64,000 nucleotides of DNA from Escherichia coli (GTDB lineage Bacteria; Pseudomonadota; Gammaproteobacteria; Enterobacterales; Enterobacteriaceae): NCBI RefSeq assembly GCF_044647545.1, contig NZ_CP172818.1; one strand, 5' to 3'. Below are positions 21,156 through 52,909 of the stretch, one piece after another. Numbering within the stretch: position 1 is the first letter of the stretch; every line of letters begins with the position of its first letter. The notes beneath the pieces are model-generated. The model saw only the letters and a program-made list of their open reading frames with translations. It was not told the DNA's origin and did no database searches. The translations under genes and the position numbers were made by a program.

Positions 21156-22654
21156 CAGAAACGCTCCAGTTCAGGAAAAGGTAAATGACCGTGATGCACA
21201 TGCATGGCACCAAATTCAGCACAGCGGTGTAGCGTGGGAATGTTTTTCCCAGGGTTCAGCAAACCATCGGGGTCAAACGCCGCCTTGACCGCATGGAAGG
21301 TCGTGATTTCATCGCTGTTGAACTGGGCGCACATTTGATTGATTTTTTCTCGCCCGATGCCATGTTCGCCACTGATGCTGCCGCCAACTTCAACGCAGAG
21401 TTCGAGGATCTTCCCGCCCAGCTCTTCCGCGCGGGCAAATTCACCGGGTTCGTTGGCATCGAAAAGGATTAACGGGTGCATGTTGCCATCTCCGGCATGA
21501 AAGACGTTGGCAACACGTAAATCATATTGCTGCGATAAACGGGCAATGCCTTCCAGTACGCCAGGCAGGGCGCGACGCGGGATGGTGCCATCCATGCAGT
21601 AGTAATCCGGGGAGATACGTCCTACCGCCGGGAACGCATTTTTGCGACCGGCCCAGAAACGTACGCGCTCTGCTTCGTCCTGTGCCAGACGGACGTCAGT
21701 CGCGCCCGCTTTCAACAAGATGTCGTTAACCCGCTCGCAGTCTTCCTGTACGTCAGACTCCACGCCGTCCAGCTCGCATAACAAAATCGCTTCGGCGTCG
21801 ACGGGATAACCGGCATGAATAAAATCTTCCGCCGCGCGGATCGACAGGTTATCCATCATCTCCAGCCCGCCGGGGATAATGCCATTGGCGATGATGTCAC
21901 CAACCGCAAGTCCGGCTTTTTCTACCGAGTCAAAGCTGGCTAACAGAACCCGCGCCACGGGCGGCTTCGGCAGCAGTTTTACCGTCACTTCGGTGGTCAC
22001 GCCGAGCATACCTTCCGATCCGGTGAACAGCGCCAGCAGGTCAAAACCAGGTGAATCCAGCGCGTCCGATCCAAGCGTCAGTGCCTCGCCGTCCAGCGTT
22101 TGCACTTCAATTTTCAGCAGGTTATGTACGGTCAGACCATATTTCAGGCAGTGGACGCCGCCGGCATTTTCAGCCACATTGCCGCCAATGGAACAGGCGA
22201 TTTGTGAGGAAGGGTCCGGTGCGTAGTAGAGATTATGCGGTGCAACGGCCTGGGAGATCGCCAGGTTACGCACGCCTGGCTGCACGCGCGCGCGGCGACC
22301 AACGGGGTTAATGTCGAGGATCTCTTTAAAGCGCGCCATCACCAACAACACACCTTTTTCCAGCGGCAGCGCGCCACCAGAAAGCCCGGTGCCTGCACCA
22401 CGGGTCACCACCGGTACACGCAGGCGATGGCAGACAGCCAGAATCGCTGTCACCTGTTCCATTTGCTTAGGCAGAACAACCAGTAATGGACGCGTGCGAT
22501 ACGCGCTCAACCCGTCACACTCGTAAGGAATGATCTCCTCATCGGTATGCAGGATCTCAAGTCCAGGGACATGCTCACGCAGTGCCATCAGTACCGATGT
22601 GCGGTCGACATCGGGTAAAGCGCCATCAAGACGCTCTTCGTACAAGATGCTCAT
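21155..22654 (-). CDS. glcD: Glycolate oxidase subunit GlcD (FAD-linked oxidase), 499 aa
   Basis: ORF track 499 aa beginning MSILYEERLDGALPDVDRT... Confidence 0.95.
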   Translation of the reverse strand: MSILYEERLDGALPDVDRTSVLMALREHVPGLEILHTDEEIIPYECDGLSAYRTRPLLVVLPKQMEQVTAILAVCHRLRVPVVTRGAGTGLSGGALPLEKGVLLVMARFKEILDINPVGRRARVQPGVRNLAISQAVAPHNLYYAPDPSSQIACSIGGNVAENAGGVHCLKYGLTVHNLLKIEVQTLDGEALTLGSDALDSPGFDLLALFTGSEGMLGVTTEVTVKLLPKPPVARVLLASFDSVEKAGLAVGDIIANGIIPGGLEMMDNLSIRAAEDFIHAGYPVDAEAILLCELDGVESDVQEDCERVNDILLKAGATDVRLAQDEAERVRFWAGRKNAFPAVGRISPDYYCMDGTIPRRALPGVLEGIARLSQQYDLRVANVFHAGDGNMHPLILFDANEPGEFARAEELGGKILELCVEVGGSISGEHGIGREKINQMCAQFNSDEITTFHAVKAAFDPDGLLNPGKNIPTLHRCAEFGAMHVHHGHLPFPELERF

Positions 22655-22904
22655 GAGTAGGCTTCGCTTTGTTGTGTTGTGTGGCAGCTGATTTTTGCGC
22701 GCTGCTTCTGTGAACAGTTATTAAGCGGGCTTTTCGTTTTCGTCTATCTCTTTAGCTACCGGTCAGACCATTTTTTTTCCAGCTCTGTGACCTTGTCTTG
22801 GTTAACTCAATGTTAAATTGATGTAACATAATCACTTACGTGATGTGCGTGTTTTGCGAGTTAAGAACAGAAAAATTGGTCCTACCTGTGCACGAGGTCC
22901 GGGA
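22655..22904. promoter_or_regulatory. Divergent glcC / glcDEFGBA promoter-operator region
   Basis: 250-bp intergenic region between divergently transcribed glcD and glcC; established site of GlcC-dependent activation; individual sites not resolved here. Confidence 0.5.
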
Positions 22905-23669
22905 ATGAAAGATGAACGTCGCCCTATTTGCGAAGTGGTTGCAGAGAGTATCGAACGGTTAATTATCGACGGCGTACTGAAGGTCGGTCAGCCGCTTCCC
23001 TCGGAACGTCGACTGTGTGAAAAGCTCGGCTTCTCACGCTCCGCACTGCGTGAAGGGCTGACCGTGCTGCGCGGGCGCGGGATTATTGAAACGGCGCAGG
23101 GTCGCGATTCTCGTGTCGCACGGCTTAATCGGGTGCAGGACACCAGCCCGCTGATCCATCTGTTCAGTACGCAGCCGCGAACGCTGTACGATCTGCTCGA
23201 CGTTCGCGCATTACTGGAGGGCGAATCGGCAAGGCTGGCGGCAACGCTGGGAACGCAGGCTGATTTTGTTGTGATAACCCGCTGTTATGAAAAAATGCTC
23301 GCCGCCAGTGAGAACAACAAAGAGATTTCGCTGATCGAACATGCGCAGTTGGATCACGCTTTCCATCTCGCCATTTGTCAGGCTTCTCACAATCAGGTGC
23401 TGGTGTTTACGCTGCAATCATTGACCGATCTGATGTTTAATTCAGTGTTTGCCAGCGTAAATAATCTCTACCATCGACCACAGCAAAAAAAGCAGATCGA
23501 TCGCCAGCATGCGCGGATCTACAACGCGGTGTTGCAGCGGCTGCCGCACGTCGCCCAGCGCGCAGCACGCGATCATGTGCGGACCGTGAAAAAGAATCTC
23601 CACGATATCGAGCTGGAAGGCCACCATTTGATTCGCTCGGCGGTGCCGCTGGAGATGAACCTGAGTTAG
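22905..23669 (+). CDS. glcC: GntR/FadR-family transcriptional activator of the glc operon, 254 aa
   Basis: ORF track 22845..23669; native start at the Met giving MKDERRPICEVVAESIERL... with N-terminal winged-helix region. Confidence 0.93.
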   Translation: MKDERRPICEVVAESIERLIIDGVLKVGQPLPSERRLCEKLGFSRSALREGLTVLRGRGIIETAQGRDSRVARLNRVQDTSPLIHLFSTQPRTLYDLLDVRALLEGESARLAATLGTQADFVVITRCYEKMLAASENNKEISLIEHAQLDHAFHLAICQASHNQVLVFTLQSLTDLMFNSVFASVNNLYHRPQQKKQIDRQHARIYNAVLQRLPHVAQRAARDHVRTVKKNLHDIELEGHHLIRSAVPLEMNLS

Positions 23670-23675
23670 CTGGTA

Positions 23676-24950
23676 TTAAATCTGCTTTTCATACAATCGG
23701 TAACGCTTGTACGGCTCCGCCCCAATGCGTTCCAGCATGTTATTCATGCCTGTATTGGTTTCGAGGATCCATGACATCTCCAGCGCATCGATCTTCCGGC
23801 GGGCAAACGGATCGCGTAAGGCTTCAATCAATAACAGCGCAATCACCGGGCCGATGCGGCTGAACTGATACTCGTCGCGCACGCCCATCAGCGGTACTCG
23901 CGCAGTTCGCACACCGCTGACTTTCAAACGCCACAGCAATTTTGCCCAGCCGAAGGGAAAGAGCGATCCGTTCAGATCGGCAATCGCCTCGTTGATGTTC
24001 GGCAAGCCGACAATAAACGCGCAGGGTGCAGAATCAATCTCAGCGATATAGATCATATCGTCCGGCACCAGATATTTAAGTTGATCGCCCATGGTCGCGA
24101 ATTCATGTTCGGTAAACGGCACAAATCCCCAGTTGTGCTGCCAGCCAGAGTTGAAAATCTCACGCAGGATCTGCATCTCTTCGGCAAACCGCTGACGATT
24201 GATGCAGCGAATGGTCACCTTTTTGCGCACCTGATCCATCAGTTTTTTTAGCGCCGGAGAGAAAGTGAGATCGGTTCGCTGCATCCACCACGCCAGTAAA
24301 TCAATGCCTTTGTGATAACCCAGTTGTTCAATATGCGCGGCATACCACGGTTTGCCGTGTGGCATCATCGCACAGGGTGGTGTGTCAAAACCTTCAATCA
24401 GTAATCCGCTTTCCTGATTGATATTCAGGCTGAAAGGACCGCTGATCTTACTTGCACCTTGTGACTTCAACCACGCTTCCGCTGCGCCAAACAACGCGGC
24501 AAAAACCTGCGGATCATCAATGGCGTCAATCATGCCGAAATGACCGGTATCTTTGCCGTAACGCTCGCGGTGCAAGGTATCTATTTGCGCGGTAATACGC
24601 CCAACTATCTGCCCCGCTTTTTTTGCCACCCACGCCTGCCAGATGATATGGTCCGTCCCCGGATTTTTCGCAGACAAATGCTCGTTGCGTTCAATGAATA
24701 AAGGGGGTATCCAGTTTGGATCGTCGGGATAAAGTGATGACGGAAAAGCGATAAATGCCTTAAGGTCATTTTTATTAAAGACGTCGCGAAACTGAAGACA
24801 ACCGGAAATTAACTTAAAACACTCCGAACGAATTTTATAATAAAAAACGATCGCGTCATACCGAAACAATACGATTCGTAAGTTTTTTTCCATATCCTTA
24901 TCGCGTCCCTCATTCAATCGTTTTAAGCCAGGATCCCTGGTTAACGGCAA
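23676..24950 (-). CDS. yghO: YghO (GNAT-like acyltransferase fold protein); 5' end uncertain
   Basis: 424-aa ORF convergent with glcC; its start abuts the anomalous block; I recall yghO being a pseudogene interrupted by IS5 in K-12, and no IS5 is present here. Confidence 0.7.
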   Translation of the reverse strand: MPLTRDPGLKRLNEGRDKDMEKNLRIVLFRYDAIVFYYKIRSECFKLISGCLQFRDVFNKNDLKAFIAFPSSLYPDDPNWIPPLFIERNEHLSAKNPGTDHIIWQAWVAKKAGQIVGRITAQIDTLHRERYGKDTGHFGMIDAIDDPQVFAALFGAAEAWLKSQGASKISGPFSLNINQESGLLIEGFDTPPCAMMPHGKPWYAAHIEQLGYHKGIDLLAWWMQRTDLTFSPALKKLMDQVRKKVTIRCINRQRFAEEMQILREIFNSGWQHNWGFVPFTEHEFATMGDQLKYLVPDDMIYIAEIDSAPCAFIVGLPNINEAIADLNGSLFPFGWAKLLWRLKVSGVRTARVPLMGVRDEYQFSRIGPVIALLLIEALRDPFARRKIDALEMSWILETNTGMNNMLERIGAEPYKRYRLYEKQI

Positions 24951-24989
24951 TACGAACGATTCCTCACGTCCATTCGAACGATATCCCTA

Positions 24990-25500
24990 CCTCCATACAC
25001 CTCCCACACCCTTTCCGGCTCATTATCACCCACCGAAGAGGCTAATCACGTCTATAACACGACGGCATTAAATTACCCGCGACCGCATCGCTCCTCTACC
25101 ATGAAGGGACGGTCGGCTTGACCCCCCCACGCACCATAGATTACGCACCAATCACTCCCCAAGCTTAAAGACATAAAAACCGGCACCTCCCCCGCCCATG
25201 AATTTCCACGCCCTGAATGAAAGAAATCCCTGAACTGGATCTTTCTCTGCGCGTCGCGGTATTTCAGAACCCATCTCCAGAACAGACTCTATCAATTTGC
25301 CATGCCCCACATTAACTATGATCATTCAACCCACGCATACAACGAATACATTTTAACCACCCTTTTAACATACCAACCGATTCCTCCACTCCACCGAAAA
25401 TTATACGCCTACCTCCATACACCCCCACACCGTTTCCCGTCATTACACCCACCGAACACCGAACACTCTATAACACACGCATTAAATACCCCCGACCCCT
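24990..25500. repeat. C/A-rich non-coding segment with two imperfect ~100-bp direct repeats (about 24990-25090 and 25408-25500)
   Basis: CTACCTCCATACACC..CCCACACC..TTTCC..TCATTA.CACCCACCGAA...TCTATAACAC..CATTAAAT..ACCC occurs twice at roughly 80 percent identity by eye; no ORF support. Confidence 0.4.
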
Positions 25501-26024
25501 CTCCCCTTTCACCAATAATTCGGCTTTCTCCTGACCCCCCCACCACATAATTACATAATTTACTCCAATTAAAATCATAAAAAATCCGGCATTTCTCCTC
25601 TATGAATCCACTAATAAAAAATCTAATGGATCTCCCCTTACAAACACCCAAACAACCATCAATAATTTATTAAACAAACTCAACACAAAAATTCACTTTT
25701 ATGAACTCTTAACGAATATCCACACCAAACAGTAAACCCCTCAAACACGCCTATCGATTTTCCGTCAAGTAAAACTTTTGAACAGATTGAAAATCCGCAG
25801 TGAAGCATATCCGGCGCGGCGGAATTTAGTGCAGATGCTTCATCACTCCTCTCAACCTTTAACGAAATCCAATCTCAAATCAGTAAACCTCCCCGGTCAA
25901 AACGCCTATCACTTCTCAACTGCGGCAAAGCTGGAAATTATTAAATCCAGCACTGTGAGCGGTGTATGCCTTGGCGGAACAGTTTCGGTAAGCCACCTCA
26001 TCTCCGGTCCGTCTATGACTTACT

Positions 26025-26426
26025 TTGGCGACCAGTTCGCAAGCAATTGCCGCGACGGGCTGGTTAGACACCGGCGACCTCGGTTATCTGCTGGACGGTT
26101 ATCTGTATGTCACCGGACGCATTAAAGATCTGATTATTATTCGTGGCCGTAATATCTGGCCGCAGGATATTGAATATATAGCGGAACAGGAACCGGAAAT
26201 TCATTCTGGCGATGCGATTGCTTTTGTTACCGCCCAGGAAAAAATCATTTTGCAGATCCAGTGTCGGATCAGCGACGAAGAACGTCGCGGGCAGGTTTCC
26301 CACCCCGCACGCGGCCAAAATGAAAATGGAGTTACCCCTGCTAGCGATTTTCGATCTCTCCACACCACACCCTTTTACGGCCCCTCCAACCCCACCCGTG
26401 CGCAAGCGGAAACACGTAAACATTAG
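26025..26426 (+). pseudogene. Fragment of a fatty acyl-AMP ligase / adenylate-forming enzyme (C-terminal subdomain only)
   Basis: ORF translation contains WLDTGDLGYLLDGYLYVTGRIKDLIIIRGRNIWPQDIEYIAEQEPEI, matching the conserved TGDLG...TGRxKDLIIxRGxNxYPQDIE motif of FAAL/acyl-CoA synthetases; the N-terminal ~450 aa of such enzymes is absent. Confidence 0.55.
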
Positions 26427-26558
26427 CGTAGGCTTCTAGTCTCAATGTTCATGAACCCCAATCATTAATCAAACTGACACTGTGACGGTGGCGAGCGGTA
26501 CTAGCTTTAAAGGTATTAATATTATAACCTGCTCGCCCGCGGCTTTCACGTTCGCGCA

Positions 26559-26840
26559 TTGACGCGTACTGCCCGCGCTCACGTCAATGATAATCTCCCC
26601 TCGGTGGGGGGTTGGCTGCAGGATACTCATTCACTTAGCGAGCTGGTTGCCGGAGCCAGCGTAGTGGTCCATTGCGCCGGGCAAGTGCGCGGGACAAGCA
26701 CCACGCTAATCGACCAGTCTAACCTTACCAAGCACCAAAGAGAGCTGCTAGCGCCAACGGTGTCCGTTTTTTTCTACCCTTTTCTCTTTCTATCTTCAGT
26801 TCCCCCGTACCCAAACGCGCTATACTGCTCTGAGCAATGA
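26559..26840 (+). pseudogene. Possible NAD(P)-binding (SDR/epimerase-like) fragment
   Basis: Short ORF with ...LVAGASVVVHCAGQVRG... resembling a Rossmann-fold motif; weak. Confidence 0.2.
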
Positions 26841-27764
26841 CAATCAGTAATGGCGGACCAAATGACGCTGGTGGTGGACCACCTTACAGTCGGCGTTTTT
26901 CCCGCGAAAAAAGTGTTTAAACCCCGCGTTGACGGGATGAAACCCCTCTTTCTGTGACTACTTGGCGCCCTACAGACACAGCTTTCTTTGCCGGATATCA
27001 CCCTTTTTTTTCAGCAGGTGACCAATTAAGCCGGAGAAGCGCCTCAATGATACAGACGCAAAAATACAAGCAAACCTATGAATTATGCGATGGCGTCGCC
27101 GGCGGCTATGACTGGCAACGCGTACAGCAACTTGCCGCCGACGCCCGTTGCGGTTCCCTGGATGGTGTTCATTGCCGGTACTCACCGGCCTTGCGGATAT
27201 CAGTACCGCGTTGAGTCGCCTGGCAGGTAAAGAACCTATGCTCTACCCGTCGAAAATTCGTGAATTAACCCACGCTACCTTTCGTCAACTTCTAACCCTG
27301 TTGTTGAAGATAGTTAGCCTGGTCCCCGGATTACCCAGCAAGACGTATTACTTAACTTGTTTTTTGGTCTGTCACGTTTATATGTTTAATAATGTAATAA
27401 TAATAAATTGTAAAATTTCCTTTTTACAGGATTTTGTCGATATAGTGTAGTTATTCCGAAAGAGGGGGATCTCGTAAGCGCTATAGCCATTGCGTCGATG
27501 AACGTGCTGGGACTCTTTCTAATGGTTGGAGCCCGTAACGATGTTTCCATACCGATTCATATTTTGATGGCTATTAATACCCCTGCGGATGTCATAACCA
27601 CTGTGCTATCATGGGTGGCGCTTCTATCATGGGGCTATAAGGTAGATGTGCGCGACTAGCTAGAGGGCGACTGCGCTTTCGAGCCACCGCATTTTAGCCA
27701 TTACGGGTTACTCACCTGTTTATGATGTTTATTTCCGCCACCGAAGGCCGGATCGGCAATAAAA

Positions 27765-28259
27765 ATGATATCTGGCCGGGACCGATTTTTCGGTTTTGTA
27801 ACCTTTAATCATGATGCCATAGGCGAAGGTCAGGCCGCGTTAGCGGCCCAAGGTACCGGCACCACCGGTTCTCGTATGGCAAACGGCAGTTATGCGCCGC
27901 ACCTGGCGTTAGAGAAAGAGATTGCCGAGTTTTTCAATCGCCCTACCGCTATCGTTTTTTCAACCGGTTATACCGCTAATTTAGGCGTCATCAGCGCACT
28001 TGCCGACCATAACGCCGTGGTGTTACTGGATGCCGACAGCCACGCCAGTATTTATGACGCCTGTTCTCTCGGTGGCGCGGAAATTATTCGTTTCCGCCAT
28101 AACGATGCTAAAGATCTGGAACGGCGGATGGTTCGCCCCGGTGAACGGGCGAAAGAGGCGATTATCATCGTTGAGGGTATCTACAGCATGCTCGGTGACG
28201 TTGCGCCGTTAGCGGAAATTGTTGATAAACATCTGCGTGTGGGTGATTTTTGTTTCTAG
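27765..28259 (+). pseudogene. Fragment of an alpha-oxoamine synthase (BioF/KBL/serine palmitoyltransferase family, PLP-dependent)
   Basis: ORF translation GSRMANGSYAPHLALEKEIAEFFNRPTAIVFSTGYTANLGVISALADHNAVVLLDADSHASIYDACSLGGAEIIRFRHNDAKDLERRM...IIIVEGIYSMLGDVAPLAEIV matches the conserved N-terminal/middle part of AOS enzymes; the region with the catalytic lysine is missing. Confidence 0.6.
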
Positions 28260-28423
28260 TAAGGCCCTTTGGTTTGCGTTGTAGGCGGAAAGGGGGGGCG
28301 AACTGCTTAAACTTGTCGGGGTTGAGGTTATTGTGATTTTTATCGTCGGCACCTTCAGTAAGTCTCTCCCCTAGTTTCGCTTTTTTTGTCTGGTTTCGAA
28401 AGAGGTAAAAGTGGTGCGATGCC

Positions 28424-28468
28424 ACCCCCCCCCATATTTTTTTCCCCCCTCTCTTTCCCCCCCCTCGA
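28424..28468. repeat. Homopolymer-rich low-complexity tract (poly-C, poly-T)
   Basis: GCCACCCCCCCCCATATTTTTTTTCCCCCCTCTCTTTCCCCCCCC; atypical for E. coli. Confidence 0.6.
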
Positions 28469-28918
28469 CGCGCCCGTGCCGTTAACAATGAGCGCCATAC
28501 CACCAGAGCCGGGGCAAAAGCTGATGGAGAAGGATAATCACCTGTATCACTGTGTCGATATACAAGGATTGGATTTTAGGTTACATATAAGTATTAGAGT
28601 GCTGGTAATAATCATAATCAAATAGGACGGGGTACGTATCCGGCTCTAGCGTGTGTTTCTTTCGTTGATCTTTTATGTGCATCTTATCCTCCCCCCTGCC
28701 GGGCATCACGCCGTCGCGCTGTACCCTAAAGCGTGCACACTGCTGAGAGTAGACAAATCGATGCCATCATTCAGGCATTTGCTACTCTGAAGCAGTAATG
28801 TGAGCCCGCCGTGGTGTTGCGCCACGGCGGGTTTAATGTGTTGTGTGATATCACTTACACCAGGCTCAACGCCACCAGCACAAACGCTATCGGTAAACCG
28901 AGCGCGGTAACAGGTGCG

Positions 28919-29997
28919 TCACGCAAATAGCAATCCCAGATTGACCATGATTTGATAGCTGATCCAGGTGAGTAAGCCAACGATGACACCTACAGCGAGA
29001 CGGCTACCCATCCCTCGGGAGCGCGGGGCGCTAAAAATAAACTGGACAGCCAGGAAAAATAACCCCAGGGGTAGGAATGGTTTCCCCAGTTTTTCCAACA
29101 TGGCAAGGCGTTATCCGTGGTGGGTTGCCCCGTTTCCTGGCAATTATGGGAGTTATGGATTAAGTGGAGGGACGGAAAATATATTCCCCCGTCGTTATAA
29201 CTTTTCAATTTTTATACGTGTAAAGCGCTTGCCCGGGGCAATTTTATGATATTTTCCGAGTGTTTTTGCGCCTCTCCCCTATTTTTTCTTTCACTATTAC
29301 ACCATGCAGGATCCACGTTTTGTCGTCTTCAATGGTGGCACTGCGTGCATAAATGTAGGATTCGAGCGAAAGATTACCACGAGATTGTAATATCTCTCCG
29401 CCCACAGGGGCTCCCCGTGCTTGTTGCGCGTTTACCGCGACAAATTTTCTACCCCGCCCCTCCCACAGCGCATTTTGGGGGTAGTGACCTCCTCCCCCCC
29501 ACGGCGCTGGCAGTCGATTTGATTTGCAGCGCCTGTTGCTGCAATGGCGACGCCACCCACTCATCTATCGCGCCTAACGAAACAGTCCACAATATCCCGG
29601 CAACCAGCGCCACCAGTGCAATACGGAAGATAGAAAACCCAGTGCTGCGAATGGCGGTAAGCTCACTGTTTTTCGATAACTGCCCCAGGCCAACAATCCC
29701 TCCCAATAATGCGATAAACGGCGAAAGTTCGACCAGTGTACGCGGTAAGGTCATCAGCACCACCAGCACCGCCTGAGTCCAGCGATAACCGCCCGGGCTG
29801 ACATCATCCAGTTCGTTAATCAGGTTGAAGGTGGTAAAAAGCGGCAGCAATAGCCCTGCGGCGGCGGCAAAACCGAGAAAGAGATGACGGATTAAATAGC
29901 GACTGAAAACGTTCTTCGGGAAAATTTCTGGAGCAAAGAGAAGTCGCGTGCGACCAGCATCAGCAGGCCCATTAGCATGAGTCCGGGTACTAACCAC
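28919..29997 (-). pseudogene. LptF/LptG-family (YjgP/YjgQ) permease homolog, fragmented (N-terminal and C-terminal pieces in different frames)
   Basis: ORF 29449..29997 has FSRYLIRHLFLGF...LPRTLVELSPFIALLGGIVGLGQLSKNSELTAIRSTGFS, an LptG-like N-terminus; ORF 28919..29101 resembles the C-terminal TM segments; frames are broken. Confidence 0.45.
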
Positions 29998-30981
29998 AAA
30001 CCAGGAAGGATGGGGACGCGTTTGCGCCCGTTAGCGCACTCGGCAGACGTCGCCGCCATAAAAAATGGCAATAAACAGCAACGTCAGTGGCAATAACGTT
30101 GTAAAATCGCCCTTGCCGCGGTTTTACCCGACTTAATGAAATGGCCAGCAGCGCCATCAACAATGCGGTCAGGCCACGGCTTTGTCGCCATTGCAGTTCG
30201 GCATGATCGGCAGGAAAGGCGGAGCGCGCCAGCTCCGTGACCGATTTTGCTTTGCGTTTGACGTTAGGGCTTTGATCCAGCGGATTCAGATGTAATTGCA
30301 GATTACGGTAGATCTGTTCGTTGTCGTCACGCCCCTGATGATCGAGAAGATAGGCGGTGCCATTCAACAAAATGATCGTTGGTTAGTTGAGTGGTCAACC
30401 ACACCAATCGAACGGACGCGGGAAAAACGTGTGCGATCGGTAGGAGAAGGATAAATCAGTGCGTGAGTCAGTCGAGCATTTATTTTATTAACCGACCGTC
30501 AAAGGAACATTCGTTCGTTAGTTTTCGTTTGTATTTTATTTCTTCCCCAACAAGTGGAGATCCACCAGCTACGGCTACGGCTGTTCCAGCCGATAAAAAT
30601 TCTGAGAATCCCACGGCCGACGATCCAACGACGGAAGGGGGATAAAAATACTTATTGGTATTATCAGAAAATGAAGGGCGGCTTTCAACCGTCGCCCAGG
30701 GCCCCCCCCGAGAGAGAGCTGGAGGTTATTAGCGGGTAGATATCCGTCCGACCGAGAGTCCAACCGACAGATACATACCGACAGGCAAGTACATCCCCAT
30801 CGCGAGCAGTACGCTGTATGTAACGATCGCTATCCCGAACATCAAGAGCTAAGGTCCCATTTGCCGCTTCGGTCAGATAACGCTGTGCGGAGTAGCTGGC
30901 GAAAATAAAGATCAGAAAACCGACGATAATCAGCACCAGACGGCGCGTACCACGCATGATGTAGTGTTCAACCAGCTTCAT
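29990..30981 (-). pseudogene. Second LptF/LptG-family permease homolog, fragmented (tandem with the downstream copy)
   Basis: ORF 30685..30981 starts MKLVEHYIMRGTRRLVLIIVGFLIFIF (LptF-like N-terminus); ORF 29990..30370 has AELQWRQSRGLTALLMALLAISLSRVKPRQGRF matching the conserved NPRQGR region; frames are broken. Confidence 0.45.
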
Positions 30982-31011
30982 CTCACTAACACCCTCAATC
31001 CTTTGAATTTT

Positions 31012-31573
31012 TTATTCATTGATCAGTTTCTGCGCCAGCGCAATGACATGATCTACCTCTTCCGGCGTCAGGCTGCCGTCCTTTGCCCACTGAATTTGCC
31101 CGTCTTTATTCAGCACCAGAATGGTTGAACTCTGCTCCGGCAACCGCCAGGCAACGCGTCCCAGTCCATTGCCGTCAATAACGAATTGCGCCCACGGATA
31201 GCGGCGTTTATTTTTTTCGATTTTGCCAACGACAAAATAGCCAGTACCAAAGATGGCATCATCGGTGTTCACAATGGTGGTGGGCTGAAAACGATCCTGC
31301 GGAAAGTTTGCCGCTTCAACCGCTTTAATTAACAGTGGCTTTTTTTTTTTCGCGGCCACTCACCCGGCGCTATATTCGGTATAACGCGGTTTTCCCCCGC
31401 GATGTGTGCTGTTCCCCACTTTGTGGTGTGTATTGTCGTCGCTCTATTCAGAAGGATCGCCCCGTTCCTGGGTATTAAACGGGGGTAACCGTTTTGCCAG
31501 TGACAAAATTGTGTGCCTGCACACCCTGGGCTAAGAGCATGATAATCAGCGCAATAATCAAACGAGATGACAT
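31012..31573 (-). pseudogene. YtfJ-family periplasmic protein homolog, frameshifted near a poly-T/poly-A tract
   Basis: C-terminal ORF 31012..31359 has ...TTIVNTDDAIFGTGYFV...YPWAQFVIDGNGL...LVLNKDGQIQWAKDGSLTPEEV matching E. coli YtfJ as I recall it; a signal-peptide-like N-terminus MSSRLIIALIIMLLAQGVQAHNF begins at 31573 in another frame; total span fits a ~185-aa protein. Confidence 0.55.
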
Positions 31574-32675
31574 CATTGCTCCGGTTATAGCGGAAAACGC
31601 GAAATCAGCAGCTCTAAGCGCTGGCGAATATCGCTATCCAGCGCCACCGGTGCATTATACGACCGGGCGGTTTTCCTAATAATCCCCACCATTGTGGCCG
31701 TGTTTTCCCCCATCAGGCCATTAATGGCGGCGAGGAAGCGGGAAATCTTTTATTGCTTTTGTTTATCAAGCGATCTTAAGGTGTCGTAATAAGAAACCTG
31801 CTGACTGATGATTTTTCGCACATCATGAAATTCCCTGCCGGTTAGTCGCGGTTTGGCAATTATCTTTTCATGTGAATTATTTTTTTTCGATAAAAATAAA
31901 AAAACTTCCGATTTTTGAATTGGTAAGGCTTAATGAAAATTCCACCAAGGACAAGACCGAAAAGTTTAATAAAACCCTAAACAATTTCCCTTAAACCAAC
32001 CCATTATTTTCTTTACCTTTAGGAAAACCTCCTGGAAACGGCCCCAAAAAAACGTCCTTTTTCCGGTAAAAAAATCCCCTCTTATTTGATAGTAAATACA
32101 GCCAATGCACAAAATTCAGGCGCTTTCAGCTCTCTTTTATGATTTTATTGTTCATCCGCAGTAAGATTCACCTCATTGCCTTTTTTCTGTTTTCATAGTA
32201 AACGCACCAACTCATTGAGATTAATGAGACTGAGTTAGAAGTGTAGCCAGTACTTGTAATTAATAATATGATTGGGTAAATATAATGTAATGCTAGACGC
32301 CACACTAAACTGACCAGCGCCGCCATCATATTATTCTACTCAACCGAAACAAAGATACCTCCCCTCGCGCGAAAAATGTAATATTTTCTTTATGATTACT
32401 ATTCCGCTCCGTTATCAAGATAAAGAAAGGAATGGCGCTGAAAAAATGCCGTCAAGGTTGGAGAGAACGAGAGCACCAGATATAGACAACCGCCATCGAA
32501 AAAAGCAAATCCCACCCCGACACGCAAACAACTACAAACAGATGAACAGCAATACGAAACTATACCGATGATGTCATGTTTCGCCACGATTGAGGCGATG
32601 GTTTCCCACGAAAAACCCTTTTTCCCCATCATACAATACTCCTGTGGGAAAAGCGCGCTGTTCCCCGCATCGAAA

Positions 32676-33791
32676 TCAAAGACTCCGGGAACCACATCGA
32701 AATACAATTGCGCCCAGCATCACCTGAATCAGGTCATACGCTTCGAGATACTTAACGCCAAACACCAGCGCAATAAGCGGCTTGCCGACGATCAACACCG
32801 CGAGCGCCACCAGAATACCGATTCCGCCCGCCAGTAAACCTGACTTCACGCCTAACAACCACGGTCTGGTGGTGCGCGGATCTAAACGCATCACCTCTGG
32901 GTAAAAACTTTTGCCCAGTAAACCCGCTGGCGTTCCGGCGGCGTCGAAGAATGTCATGGCGATTTTAAATAACCCGGCGGCAGCGGGTCCTAACACGATC
33001 CCCACCAGCACTGTGCTGCACGAGTTACGCGCCGACCAGATGGAGTGGGCAATGTTGGTTGACCAGACAAAACTCCACGCGCCTTTAATGTGTCGGGCAG
33101 ACTCAAACAGATTCAATTTGAAGGCGTTATGGATATTTCTGCGGCGTAATTCGCGCGCGGCAAACCACCAGTACATGGTGCCGCCAACCAGATTCGACAC
33201 GTACCAGGCAATAACAAAACCCGCAAAACCAAAGTCAAAATACCAGGCTACGACGCTCCCCGCTGCGCGCAGAAAAGGTTTCGTCGCTTGCTGTACAGCA
33301 ATTAGATCGAAGCGATCTACCGCACGCAGAATGCCGGTCGGCGTGGAGGAAGCCATTGAAGGAATGAGCGTGCAATACAGCGCTGCCAGCCAAAAGCTTT
33401 GGTCATCCAGACCTAATGAATGGGAAAGAAAAGGGAGTAAGGCAATGCCGCCGACAATCGCCACCGCGCCGCTGACGATATCCAGCGAGAAGGAAAATGA
33501 GACGACATTGCGAAATTGCTGCGGATTATTGTTGGTCAAGGCTGGCGTTCCGTACTGCACCACCAACTGCCATGTCTGAAACTTAATAAAATCGCTGATC
33601 GACTTGGCGTACGATTGCACAATCACCAGTACGCCAAACATGGCGGGCGTCATCCCTTTACCGGCACACGAGAGCGCCAACAGACCCAGTAAAGCGCTCA
33701 CGACATTACTGGAGCCTAACCAGGCGCTATTGCGAATAATGGTGCGAAACGCGCCATCTGCAAACCAATGTTTGATGTTAAAACCCGCCAA
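32676..33791 (-). CDS. yghQ: Polysaccharide-transporter/flippase-like inner membrane protein YghQ; 3' end possibly disturbed
   Basis: 371-aa polytopic membrane ORF; its C-terminus borders the anomalous block, and a further out-of-frame ORF follows at 32399..32707. Confidence 0.85.
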   Translation of the reverse strand: MAGFNIKHWFADGAFRTIIRNSAWLGSSNVVSALLGLLALSCAGKGMTPAMFGVLVIVQSYAKSISDFIKFQTWQLVVQYGTPALTNNNPQQFRNVVSFSFSLDIVSGAVAIVGGIALLPFLSHSLGLDDQSFWLAALYCTLIPSMASSTPTGILRAVDRFDLIAVQQATKPFLRAAGSVVAWYFDFGFAGFVIAWYVSNLVGGTMYWWFAARELRRRNIHNAFKLNLFESARHIKGAWSFVWSTNIAHSIWSARNSCSTVLVGIVLGPAAAGLFKIAMTFFDAAGTPAGLLGKSFYPEVMRLDPRTTRPWLLGVKSGLLAGGIGILVALAVLIVGKPLIALVFGVKYLEAYDLIQVMLGAIVFRCGSRSL

Positions 33792-40977: not shown

Positions 40978-41093
40978 GGCAACATTGGCACTTATCCTAT
41001 TACCATAAACATTTTAACTAACCCCAAAACCACATTTCATTAACTTTTTCCCTCCCCAATTTTTTTTTTTTCCTAAAAAACACCCCCCTTCCC

Positions 41094-41150
<57 letters not shown>

Positions 41151-41169
41151 ATTTTCGTGCAGCGAGTCC

Positions 41170-41520
41170 CATTTCCCCCGATAAGACCGGTATTTCTTCA
41201 GGCCACAGGAGACTTCAGGCCAAGCTGCTGCATCAGTTTTCGCACCGTTTTGCCACTGAACTTGAGACCTCTTTTCTGAAGTTCACAGTCGATCCGCCGG
41301 TACCCATAACATCCCCGGTGTTCATGGAAGATGGAGGGGATGGGCTGTTTCACATCACAATACTTTTCTTAGCCTTCTGCAGTGACAGCTGATAGTACAG
41401 CGTGCTTCTGGCCAGCCCTGCGAAGCCTTTAACAGGTCAGACTGGCAGTGTCCGCACCTCAGGTTCTGGATGACTTTCGCTTTTTCTCCAGCTCCAGGCG
41501 CTTTTTTCCCAGGAGATCCT
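41170..41520 (-). mobile_element. IS3-family transposase remnant (OrfB N-terminal region, frameshifted and truncated)
   Basis: Minus-strand translations give ...GLARSTLYYQLSLQKAKKSIVM and EHRGCYGYRRIDCELQKRGLKFSGKTVRKLMQQLGL, matching the conserved N-terminal motifs of IS3-family OrfB; no DDE catalytic domain and no inverted repeats follow. Confidence 0.5.
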
Positions 41521-42037
41521 CCTGCATGCCTTCCAGATATGCATTTCCTGCGCAAAAATACCCCCCTCCTTCTTCTCTCTTTCCGCCCTCTGTTTCCCCT
41601 CCTTTTCTCGGGTATCAACAAAACGGTCATTCTTTTCTCCCTCCCGCGCCTAAAAAAGCCCTCACCACCAGTTTGTGTCGCCTTTTTCCTGTTTTCCGCC
41701 GTGTGGTGGCCGGGAATGTTAAAGCCGGCCGGCCGCGGGGGAGAGACAGAGAAAATGCGAGAAAACAAAAAAAAACACGCAAAGTCTCTCTAGAAGAAAA
41801 TAGCCGCCCCCGTTCCTGCAATCCAGGAGCAGAAGAGCGAAAAAAAAAAAAAGAATAAAGGGGGGAGGGGGTGGTATAAAAAAGTTAAAATTGTTGTGGT
41901 GAAAAAAGGAGGCCAGACGGGCCGGTGAAAAAATTCTGTGGGGAAGACTATTTTAAATAAAGGTTTTGTAAAAAACACCACCTGATGTGATATGATATTC
42001 ACTACAAGTGTGGGGTGGAGTTTACGCGCCCTAATCA

Positions 42038-52877: not shown

Positions 52878-52909
52878 GCCCGGTTGTGAAAAGCAACCGG
52901 GCTTTTATT
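52878..52909. terminator. Bidirectional rho-independent terminator between convergent yghA and exbD
   Basis: GCCCGGTTG-tgaaaag-CAACCGGGC stem-loop flanked by A-run and T-run. Confidence 0.65.

Follow-up and report, generated by a model that had tools for sequence, protein, structure and literature searches.

An apparently truncated serine palmitoyltransferase gene in Escherichia coli very probably reflects sequence corruption of an accessory ceramide island rather than gene decay

Introduction

The closest described counterpart of the locus analysed here is the ceramide cluster of E. coli BL21(DE3), which consists of yghO/aca (ECD_02850), aasR (ECD_02851), epi (ECD_02852), acpR (ECD_02853) and spt (ECD_02854), and from which Spt, AcpR and AasR have been assayed (Padilla-Gomez et al. 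2022, PMC9386255). In this system AasR charges the dedicated carrier AcpR with a fatty acid, and Spt takes the acyl-AcpR in preference to acyl-CoA and, with serine, produces 3-oxo-sphinganine, while the reduction and N-acylation that lead to dihydroceramide have been proposed for Epi and Aca, respectively (PMC9386255). Among the Rhodobacteria examined in that work, the five ceramide genes were found clustered together only in Caulobacter crescentus and E. coli BL21. The C. crescentus cluster (spt CC_1162, acpR CC_1163, epi CC_1164, aasR CC_1165, aca CC_1154) provides the same five functions (PMC9386255), but belongs to another organism and has another gene order than that of E. coli.

The cluster is an accessory feature of the species. 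In the annotations of E. coli ATCC 8739, ECONIH1 and BL21(DE3), yghO and yghQ are separated by genes that encode, in order, a fatty acyl-AMP ligase (FAAL), an NAD-dependent epimerase/dehydratase family protein, an acyl carrier protein and Spt, and then by a further lptG/lptF pair, one YtfJ-family gene and one hypothetical gene. The product annotated as Spt at this locus in all three strains is a 390-aa protein (WP_000524970.1). A 1.1-kb query over spt detected the island in 4122 of the 5426 complete E. coli genomes searched (~76%). It is deleted from K-12 MG1655, which has an IS5 element at the site, and in E. coli 23CRST014 spt is broken by an annotated IS1 insertion (NZ_AP045828.1 769416-771282).

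Results

The window, which is the whole stretch of 64,000 nucleotides that was analysed, places the locus between glcD, glcC and yghO on one side and a yghQ-like gene, yghR, yghS, yghT, pitB and gss on the other. The original prediction had read one ORF at this locus (Table 1) as a truncated alpha-oxoamine synthase (AOS) that lacks the catalytic-lysine region. Profile and similarity searches confirm that, at the level of sequence, this ORF is a genuine AOS fragment whose nearest relatives are bacterial serine palmitoyltransferases (SPTs), encoding ~150 residues of the N-terminal and middle part of such an enzyme. All PDB matches found with phmmer were AOS enzymes, the best of them Sphingomonas SPT (2jgt_A, E=3.2e-45, ORF residues 7-154 against chain residues 74-219), with weaker matches to BioF, Kbl, ALAS and CqsA chains (1e-24 to 1e-12). 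The search with the aminotransferase class I/II profile that the prediction had proposed as a check was significant as well: Aminotran_1_2 (PF00155) matched ORF residues 26-153 at E=1e-19, consistent with a fold-type I PLP enzyme.

Among NCBIfam profiles the highest score was that of SerpalmtaseBetaP, with 232 bits at E=7e-69 over profile positions 47-202 of 394; the alpha-proteobacterial SPT model scored 175 bits, bioF 140 bits and Kbl 108 bits. Because only these profile positions are present, the ORF falls below the curated whole-protein cut-off of 500 bits for the beta-proteobacterial SPT equivalog (NF047599), a cut-off that its intact ECONIH1 orthologue clears with 599 bits. We thus agree with the earlier view that the ORF is neither bioF nor kbl. 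E. coli BioF (8-amino-7-oxononanoate synthase) and Kbl (2-amino-3-ketobutyrate CoA ligase) share the fold-type I AOS superfamily with the ORF, but the ORF scores far more weakly against their profiles, and their locus and gene context differ too. The SPT of Sphingomonas paucimobilis (PDB 2jgt, 2jg2, 2w8j) is the best match of solved structure and has in common with the ORF a conserved GSRMLNG-like segment and the conserved active-site, His-containing segment LDADSHASIYD, the latter identical between the two in our alignment. In SPT structures this segment has a role in stacking on PLP. The Sphingomonas enzyme nonetheless belongs to a different subfamily, as indicated by the lower score of the ORF with the alpha-proteobacterial than with the beta-proteobacterial model.

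In a collection of 5.8 billion sequences, the proteins closest to the ORF product were ordinary E. coli Spt fragments (86-95% identity) and then Serratia proteins (75%). A BLASTP comparison with ECONIH1 Spt gave 144 identical residues of 162, with the differences concentrated at the two ends (the first 12 residues and the last 10). Judged by the profile scores, the locus is an spt locus and the ORF as read is an incomplete Spt.

The incompleteness lies in the reading frame rather than in the extent of the gene. When ECONIH1 Spt (390 aa) was compared with the window by tblastn, the matches at the two ends of the protein (residues 1-49 and 368-390) both lay in frame 2 and the long one between them (residues 11-367) in frame 3, and alignment to spt places the part of the gene that had been taken as missing in colinear order around the ORF. 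Relative to the E. coli gene, the core of the ORF retains 99% DNA identity, whereas ~190 nt at the 5' end and ~580 nt at the 3' end are scrambled, as are the neighbouring genes; these two ends retain ~66% identity to the reference, in register and with few indels. The ORF exists because the central patch of the gene is intact. Its stop codon precedes the PLP-lysine motif GTFSKS, just as the original prediction had it, and the ORF is non-functional as read; the Lys region itself, however, is not lacking but has been kept out of frame. The peptide IVGTFSKSL can be read in the +1 frame at 28342-28368 and is followed by a stop, the window giving VIVIFIVGTFSKSLP before that stop and the reference DIIVGTFSKSLA.

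The same mixture of recognisable and unrecognisable sequence is found in the surrounding genes (Table 1). The FAAL fragment reported upstream of the ORF is real: an ORF at 26025-26426 matches AasR residues 416-546 with 77% identity (tblastn), while C/A-rich junk takes the place of gene sequence in the 5' two thirds of aasR. The pairing of FAAL and AOS had been interpreted as a signature of acyl-amino-acid condensation, foreign to the known biotin and threonine pathways of E. coli at this locus. The mechanistic part of that interpretation is correct, but the pairing is not unknown in E. coli, as it is that of the accessory ceramide cluster yghO(aca)-aasR-epi-acpR-spt, with the locus between yghO and an lptG-like gene and the gene order the same as in BL21(DE3). 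A Rhodobacteria-type sphingolipid module has been described as spt directly following a dedicated acp, with a FAAL-type acyl-ACP synthetase nearby (PMC9386255); in the window the acpR remnant lies directly before the spt remnant and aasR is near, in the reference order.

Table 1 Features of the spt locus and of the corrupted zones in the window
Feature	Coordinates	Strand	Remarks
yghO (aca, N-acyltransferase)	23679..24824	-	tblastn residues 2-380, 96.9% identity; first ~35-50 nt inside the corrupted zone, otherwise intact
Corruption zone A	24790..32723	.	spt island, together with the 3' end of yghQ and with lptG-like, lptF-like, ytfJ-like and hypothetical genes; all absent from K-12 MG1655
aasR remnant (FAAL-type acyl-ACP synthetase)	25083..26467	+	recognisable only at 26031-26417; 26061-26284 100% identical
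epi remnant (NAD-dependent epimerase/dehydratase family; presumed 3-oxo-sphinganine/ceramide reductase)	26464..27368	+	split across three frames
acpR remnant (specialised acyl carrier protein)	27382..27629	+	~66% nucleotide identity; tblastn residues 23-80, 40% identity
spt remnant, full-length, colinear, corrupted	27629..28798	+	frames 2, 3, 2; several in-frame stops; reference 1173 bp; tblastn, translation, alignment
ORF under study	27765..28259	+	ATG start, 164 aa; residues 46-206 of E. coli Spt (WP_000524970.1); longest ORF of the gene
Intact spt patch	27816..28213	+	99% identical to ECONIH1 and ATCC 8739 spt DNA
GTFSKS motif	28348..28365	+	PLP-Lys codon AAG at 28360-28362; preserved at the DNA level, out of the ORF frame, 3' of the ORF stop
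lptG-like permease remnant	28833-29916	-	tblastn, alignment to reference
lptF-like permease remnant	29913-30981	-	tblastn, alignment to reference
Corruption zone B	40979..42031	.	degraded IS3-family element, ~500 bp shorter than the ECONIH1 copy between yghU and hybG
Corruption zone C	61007..62019	.	largely poly-A junk replacing two ECONIH1 hypothetical genes between yqhH and ygiQ

We used ECONIH1, the closest complete genome, in which the island lies at NZ_CP009859.1:3570036-3579454, as the reference for the whole window, and ATCC 8739 as a second reference for natural differences. The left flank (6790-24778) is 99.994% identical to ECONIH1, and on the right side, from 32710 onwards, every 250-base bin shows at least 99.5% identity, zones B and C excepted. 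Within zone A, patches of 41-488 bp with 99-100% identity to ECONIH1 are interleaved with patches of 56-79% identity. Essentially none of the first 1.3 kb (24766-26060), which is rich in C and A and has a GC skew of -0.4 to -0.5, can be aligned to ECONIH1. Also in C/A-rich junk, with a GC skew of ~-0.5, is an imperfect direct repeat of ~230 nt (24981-25210 and 25403-25620, spacing 422 nt) that has no ECONIH1 counterpart and whose second copy looks like a more degraded first. A search for tandem or dispersed repeats that might explain the damage returned trivial matches and this one drifting repeat (24981-25620) only.

Two further zones in the window are affected. Zone B opens with T runs and a C run of ~50 nt and is near-exact in 41150-41500 only. 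The counterpart of zone C in ECONIH1 is NZ_CP009859.1 3607164-3608620, and both K-12 and ATCC 8739 have nothing at this site. The junk in these two zones includes poly-C of ~50 nt and poly-A of up to ~30 nt. When K-12 MG1655 was aligned to the window, the colinear blocks broke and restarted at 24790/32723, 40979/42031 and 61007/62019; thus, the corrupted zones A, B and C are exactly the DNA that is absent from K-12. At the left edge of all three zones, the base at which the window leaves ECONIH1 is also the one at which K-12 and ECONIH1 part. At the right edge of zone A the sequence recovers ~20 bp before colinearity with K-12 resumes, and the link to K-12 is close there, not base-perfect. The gene content of a laboratory strain cannot steer mutation in another lineage. 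That the zone edges coincide with K-12 breakpoints therefore speaks for a computational origin linked to a K-12-like backbone.

Two more structural features, the pheV island and gspD-K, distinguish ECONIH1 from K-12 here; the window is K-12-like in both, having neither. At 5068-6800 a tRNA-Phe gene (pheV) occurs without the ECONIH1 capsule island, and a K-12-type gspL'-'gspC deletion junction lies near 6790. Alleles on either side of the pheV and gsp junctions are nonetheless 99.9-100% ECONIH1-like, and none of the 5426 complete E. coli genomes combines this K-12-type structure with ECONIH1 alleles. We considered whether positions 1-6900 are also corrupted and rejected this, as the region shows even divergence of 1-5% from K-12-like strains and 99.9-100% identity to ECONIH1 where the two can be compared.

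The apparent truncation of spt is very probably the result of non-biological sequence corruption, with a technical cause, and not of decay. The strongest of the competing explanations, which we nevertheless regard as very improbable, is that the spt ORF is what is left of a genuine pseudogene in a ceramide island decayed by natural mutation. The island is clearly dispensable, given its deletion with IS5 in K-12 and the IS1 element inside spt in one strain, and all island genes in the window are broken. However, these two cases show how the island is truly lost in nature, and the pattern in the window is unlike them: patches of 33% divergence sit beside patches and flanks that are 100% identical. 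Assuming a uniform rate equal to the zone average of 20.7% non-identity, the probability of the 398-bp stretch free of changes is ~1e-40. At sites informative between ECONIH1 and ATCC 8739, the exact patches carry the ECONIH1 allele in 36 of 36 cases. The template is therefore a very recent relative of ECONIH1, with the damage superimposed on it.

The spectrum of changes also argues against natural decay. A natural pseudogene is expected to show a natural spectrum, with differences spread roughly evenly along the gene, whereas the window spt is a mosaic of exact and ~65% patches. Relative to ECONIH1, the low-identity patches contain 414 transitions and 782 transversions, a ratio of 0.53, in contrast to 65 and 21, a ratio of 3.1, in the natural differences between ECONIH1 and ATCC 8739 over the same island. 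A ratio of 0.5 is the expectation for random replacement. Mismatches in these patches fall on codon positions 1, 2 and 3 in the proportions 398:394:402, compared with 14:7:63 and thus a third-position bias in the natural control. Homopolymer runs of at least 7 number 14 in the low patches and 0 in the reference, and the substituted bases copy a neighbouring base in 51% of cases versus 39% for the true bases. Decay of the island would further have to be reconciled with runs of A and of C in the zones that extend over tens of bases, and with like damage, starting exactly at K-12 breakpoints, in an IS element and an intergenic insertion that are both unrelated to the island.

We attach next to no credence to a recombinant mosaic, in which normal E. 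coli island segments would alternate with imports from the homologous cluster of a distant species. Homologues do exist in other Enterobacterales, an example being proteins of Serratia marcescens that share 75% identity with the ORF, and identities of ~65-70% are typical of orthologues from different genera. Yet the low-identity patches have no coding potential, with stops and frame changes in each gene, and show no excess of third-position differences. Even in these patches the ECONIH1 allele is favoured over that of ATCC 8739 at informative sites (32 versus 7). More than 15 alternating tracts in 8 kb are implausible as recombination, and zones B and C would be left unexplained. Nor did we find a high-identity donor for the low patches in the 5426 E. 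coli genomes or in exact-match scans of GTDB and JGI: megablast and blastn against the complete E. coli genomes found no natural relative of zone A closer than ~81%, and a 41-mer from a low-identity patch had no exact match in GTDB representative genomes or JGI metagenome contigs. The product of the corrupted 164-aa ORF was likewise absent from the gene-position index.

A biological process that singles out the horizontally acquired DNA of this strain for hypermutation but spares brief exact stretches, among them the spt core, would suit the observation that all three damaged zones are accessory relative to K-12. It is hardly conceivable, however, when the boundaries are set by one laboratory strain that is biologically unprivileged, and when further accessory segments of this lineage, namely the pheV island and gspD-K, are simply absent, in a K-12-like arrangement. 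To our knowledge, no mutator produces a flat spectrum at 30% density in combination with long homopolymer tracts and exact patches that have sharp edges.

Discussion

The ORF is the best-preserved patch of spt, an accessory gene of E. coli, and our combined findings indicate that its stop at 28257, like the seeming absence of the Lys region, is very probably a product of corruption throughout the island. Under this interpretation the island would be a low-fidelity rendering of ECONIH1-type sequence, with exact patches alternating with damaged patches that stay in register and in which about one base in three has been swapped almost randomly, with some indels and homopolymer junk. The artefact may have arisen in assembly, in consensus building or in an in-silico reconstruction, in connection with a K-12-like backbone. 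Either a reference-guided consensus in which insertions were poorly rebuilt or some in-silico reconstruction would be a candidate. Raw long-read error was considered and rejected, since an excess of substitutions over indels of 6:1 and the exact patches do not fit it; we know of no sequencing platform with a typical error profile that matches substitution-dominated error of 30% combined with exact patches. If the corruption were real in the cell it would be remarkable, and the evidence points strongly in the opposite direction.

The cluster and its spt gene are already known in E. coli, and the ORF is neither a new nor a naturally decayed enzyme; the original prediction, taken as a whole, is partly supported. 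Most likely the source organism carries an intact spt of 390 aa. In such an organism Spt, as a PLP-dependent enzyme, would use L-serine and an acyl group from AcpR, loaded by the FAAL-type ligase AasR, to make 3-oxo-sphinganine, and Epi and YghO would then finish the synthesis of dihydroceramide. Formation of 3-oxo-sphinganine from serine and acyl-AcpR has been reported for the identical BL21(DE3) reference protein (PMC9386255). The biological consequence is small, as both gene and pathway are on record for E. coli B strains and spt is common across the species. For users of the sequence, at least positions 24790-32723, 40979-42031 and 61007-62019 should be treated as untrustworthy, and ORFs, pseudogenes, repeats and motifs found there, including the FAAL and lptF/lptG-like fragments, discounted until verified.

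In intact islands the lptG/lptF pair, the YtfJ-family and hypothetical genes and yghQ (lipopolysaccharide biosynthesis, flippase-like) adjoin the ceramide genes, the corresponding part of the window being 28833-33791. These genes could provide an export route for the lipid product.

Elsewhere in the window, ~240 bp that are present between exbD and yghA in K-12 and ATCC 8739 are missing at 52902-52904 from both the window and ECONIH1. This clean junction is ordinary lineage variation, not corruption.
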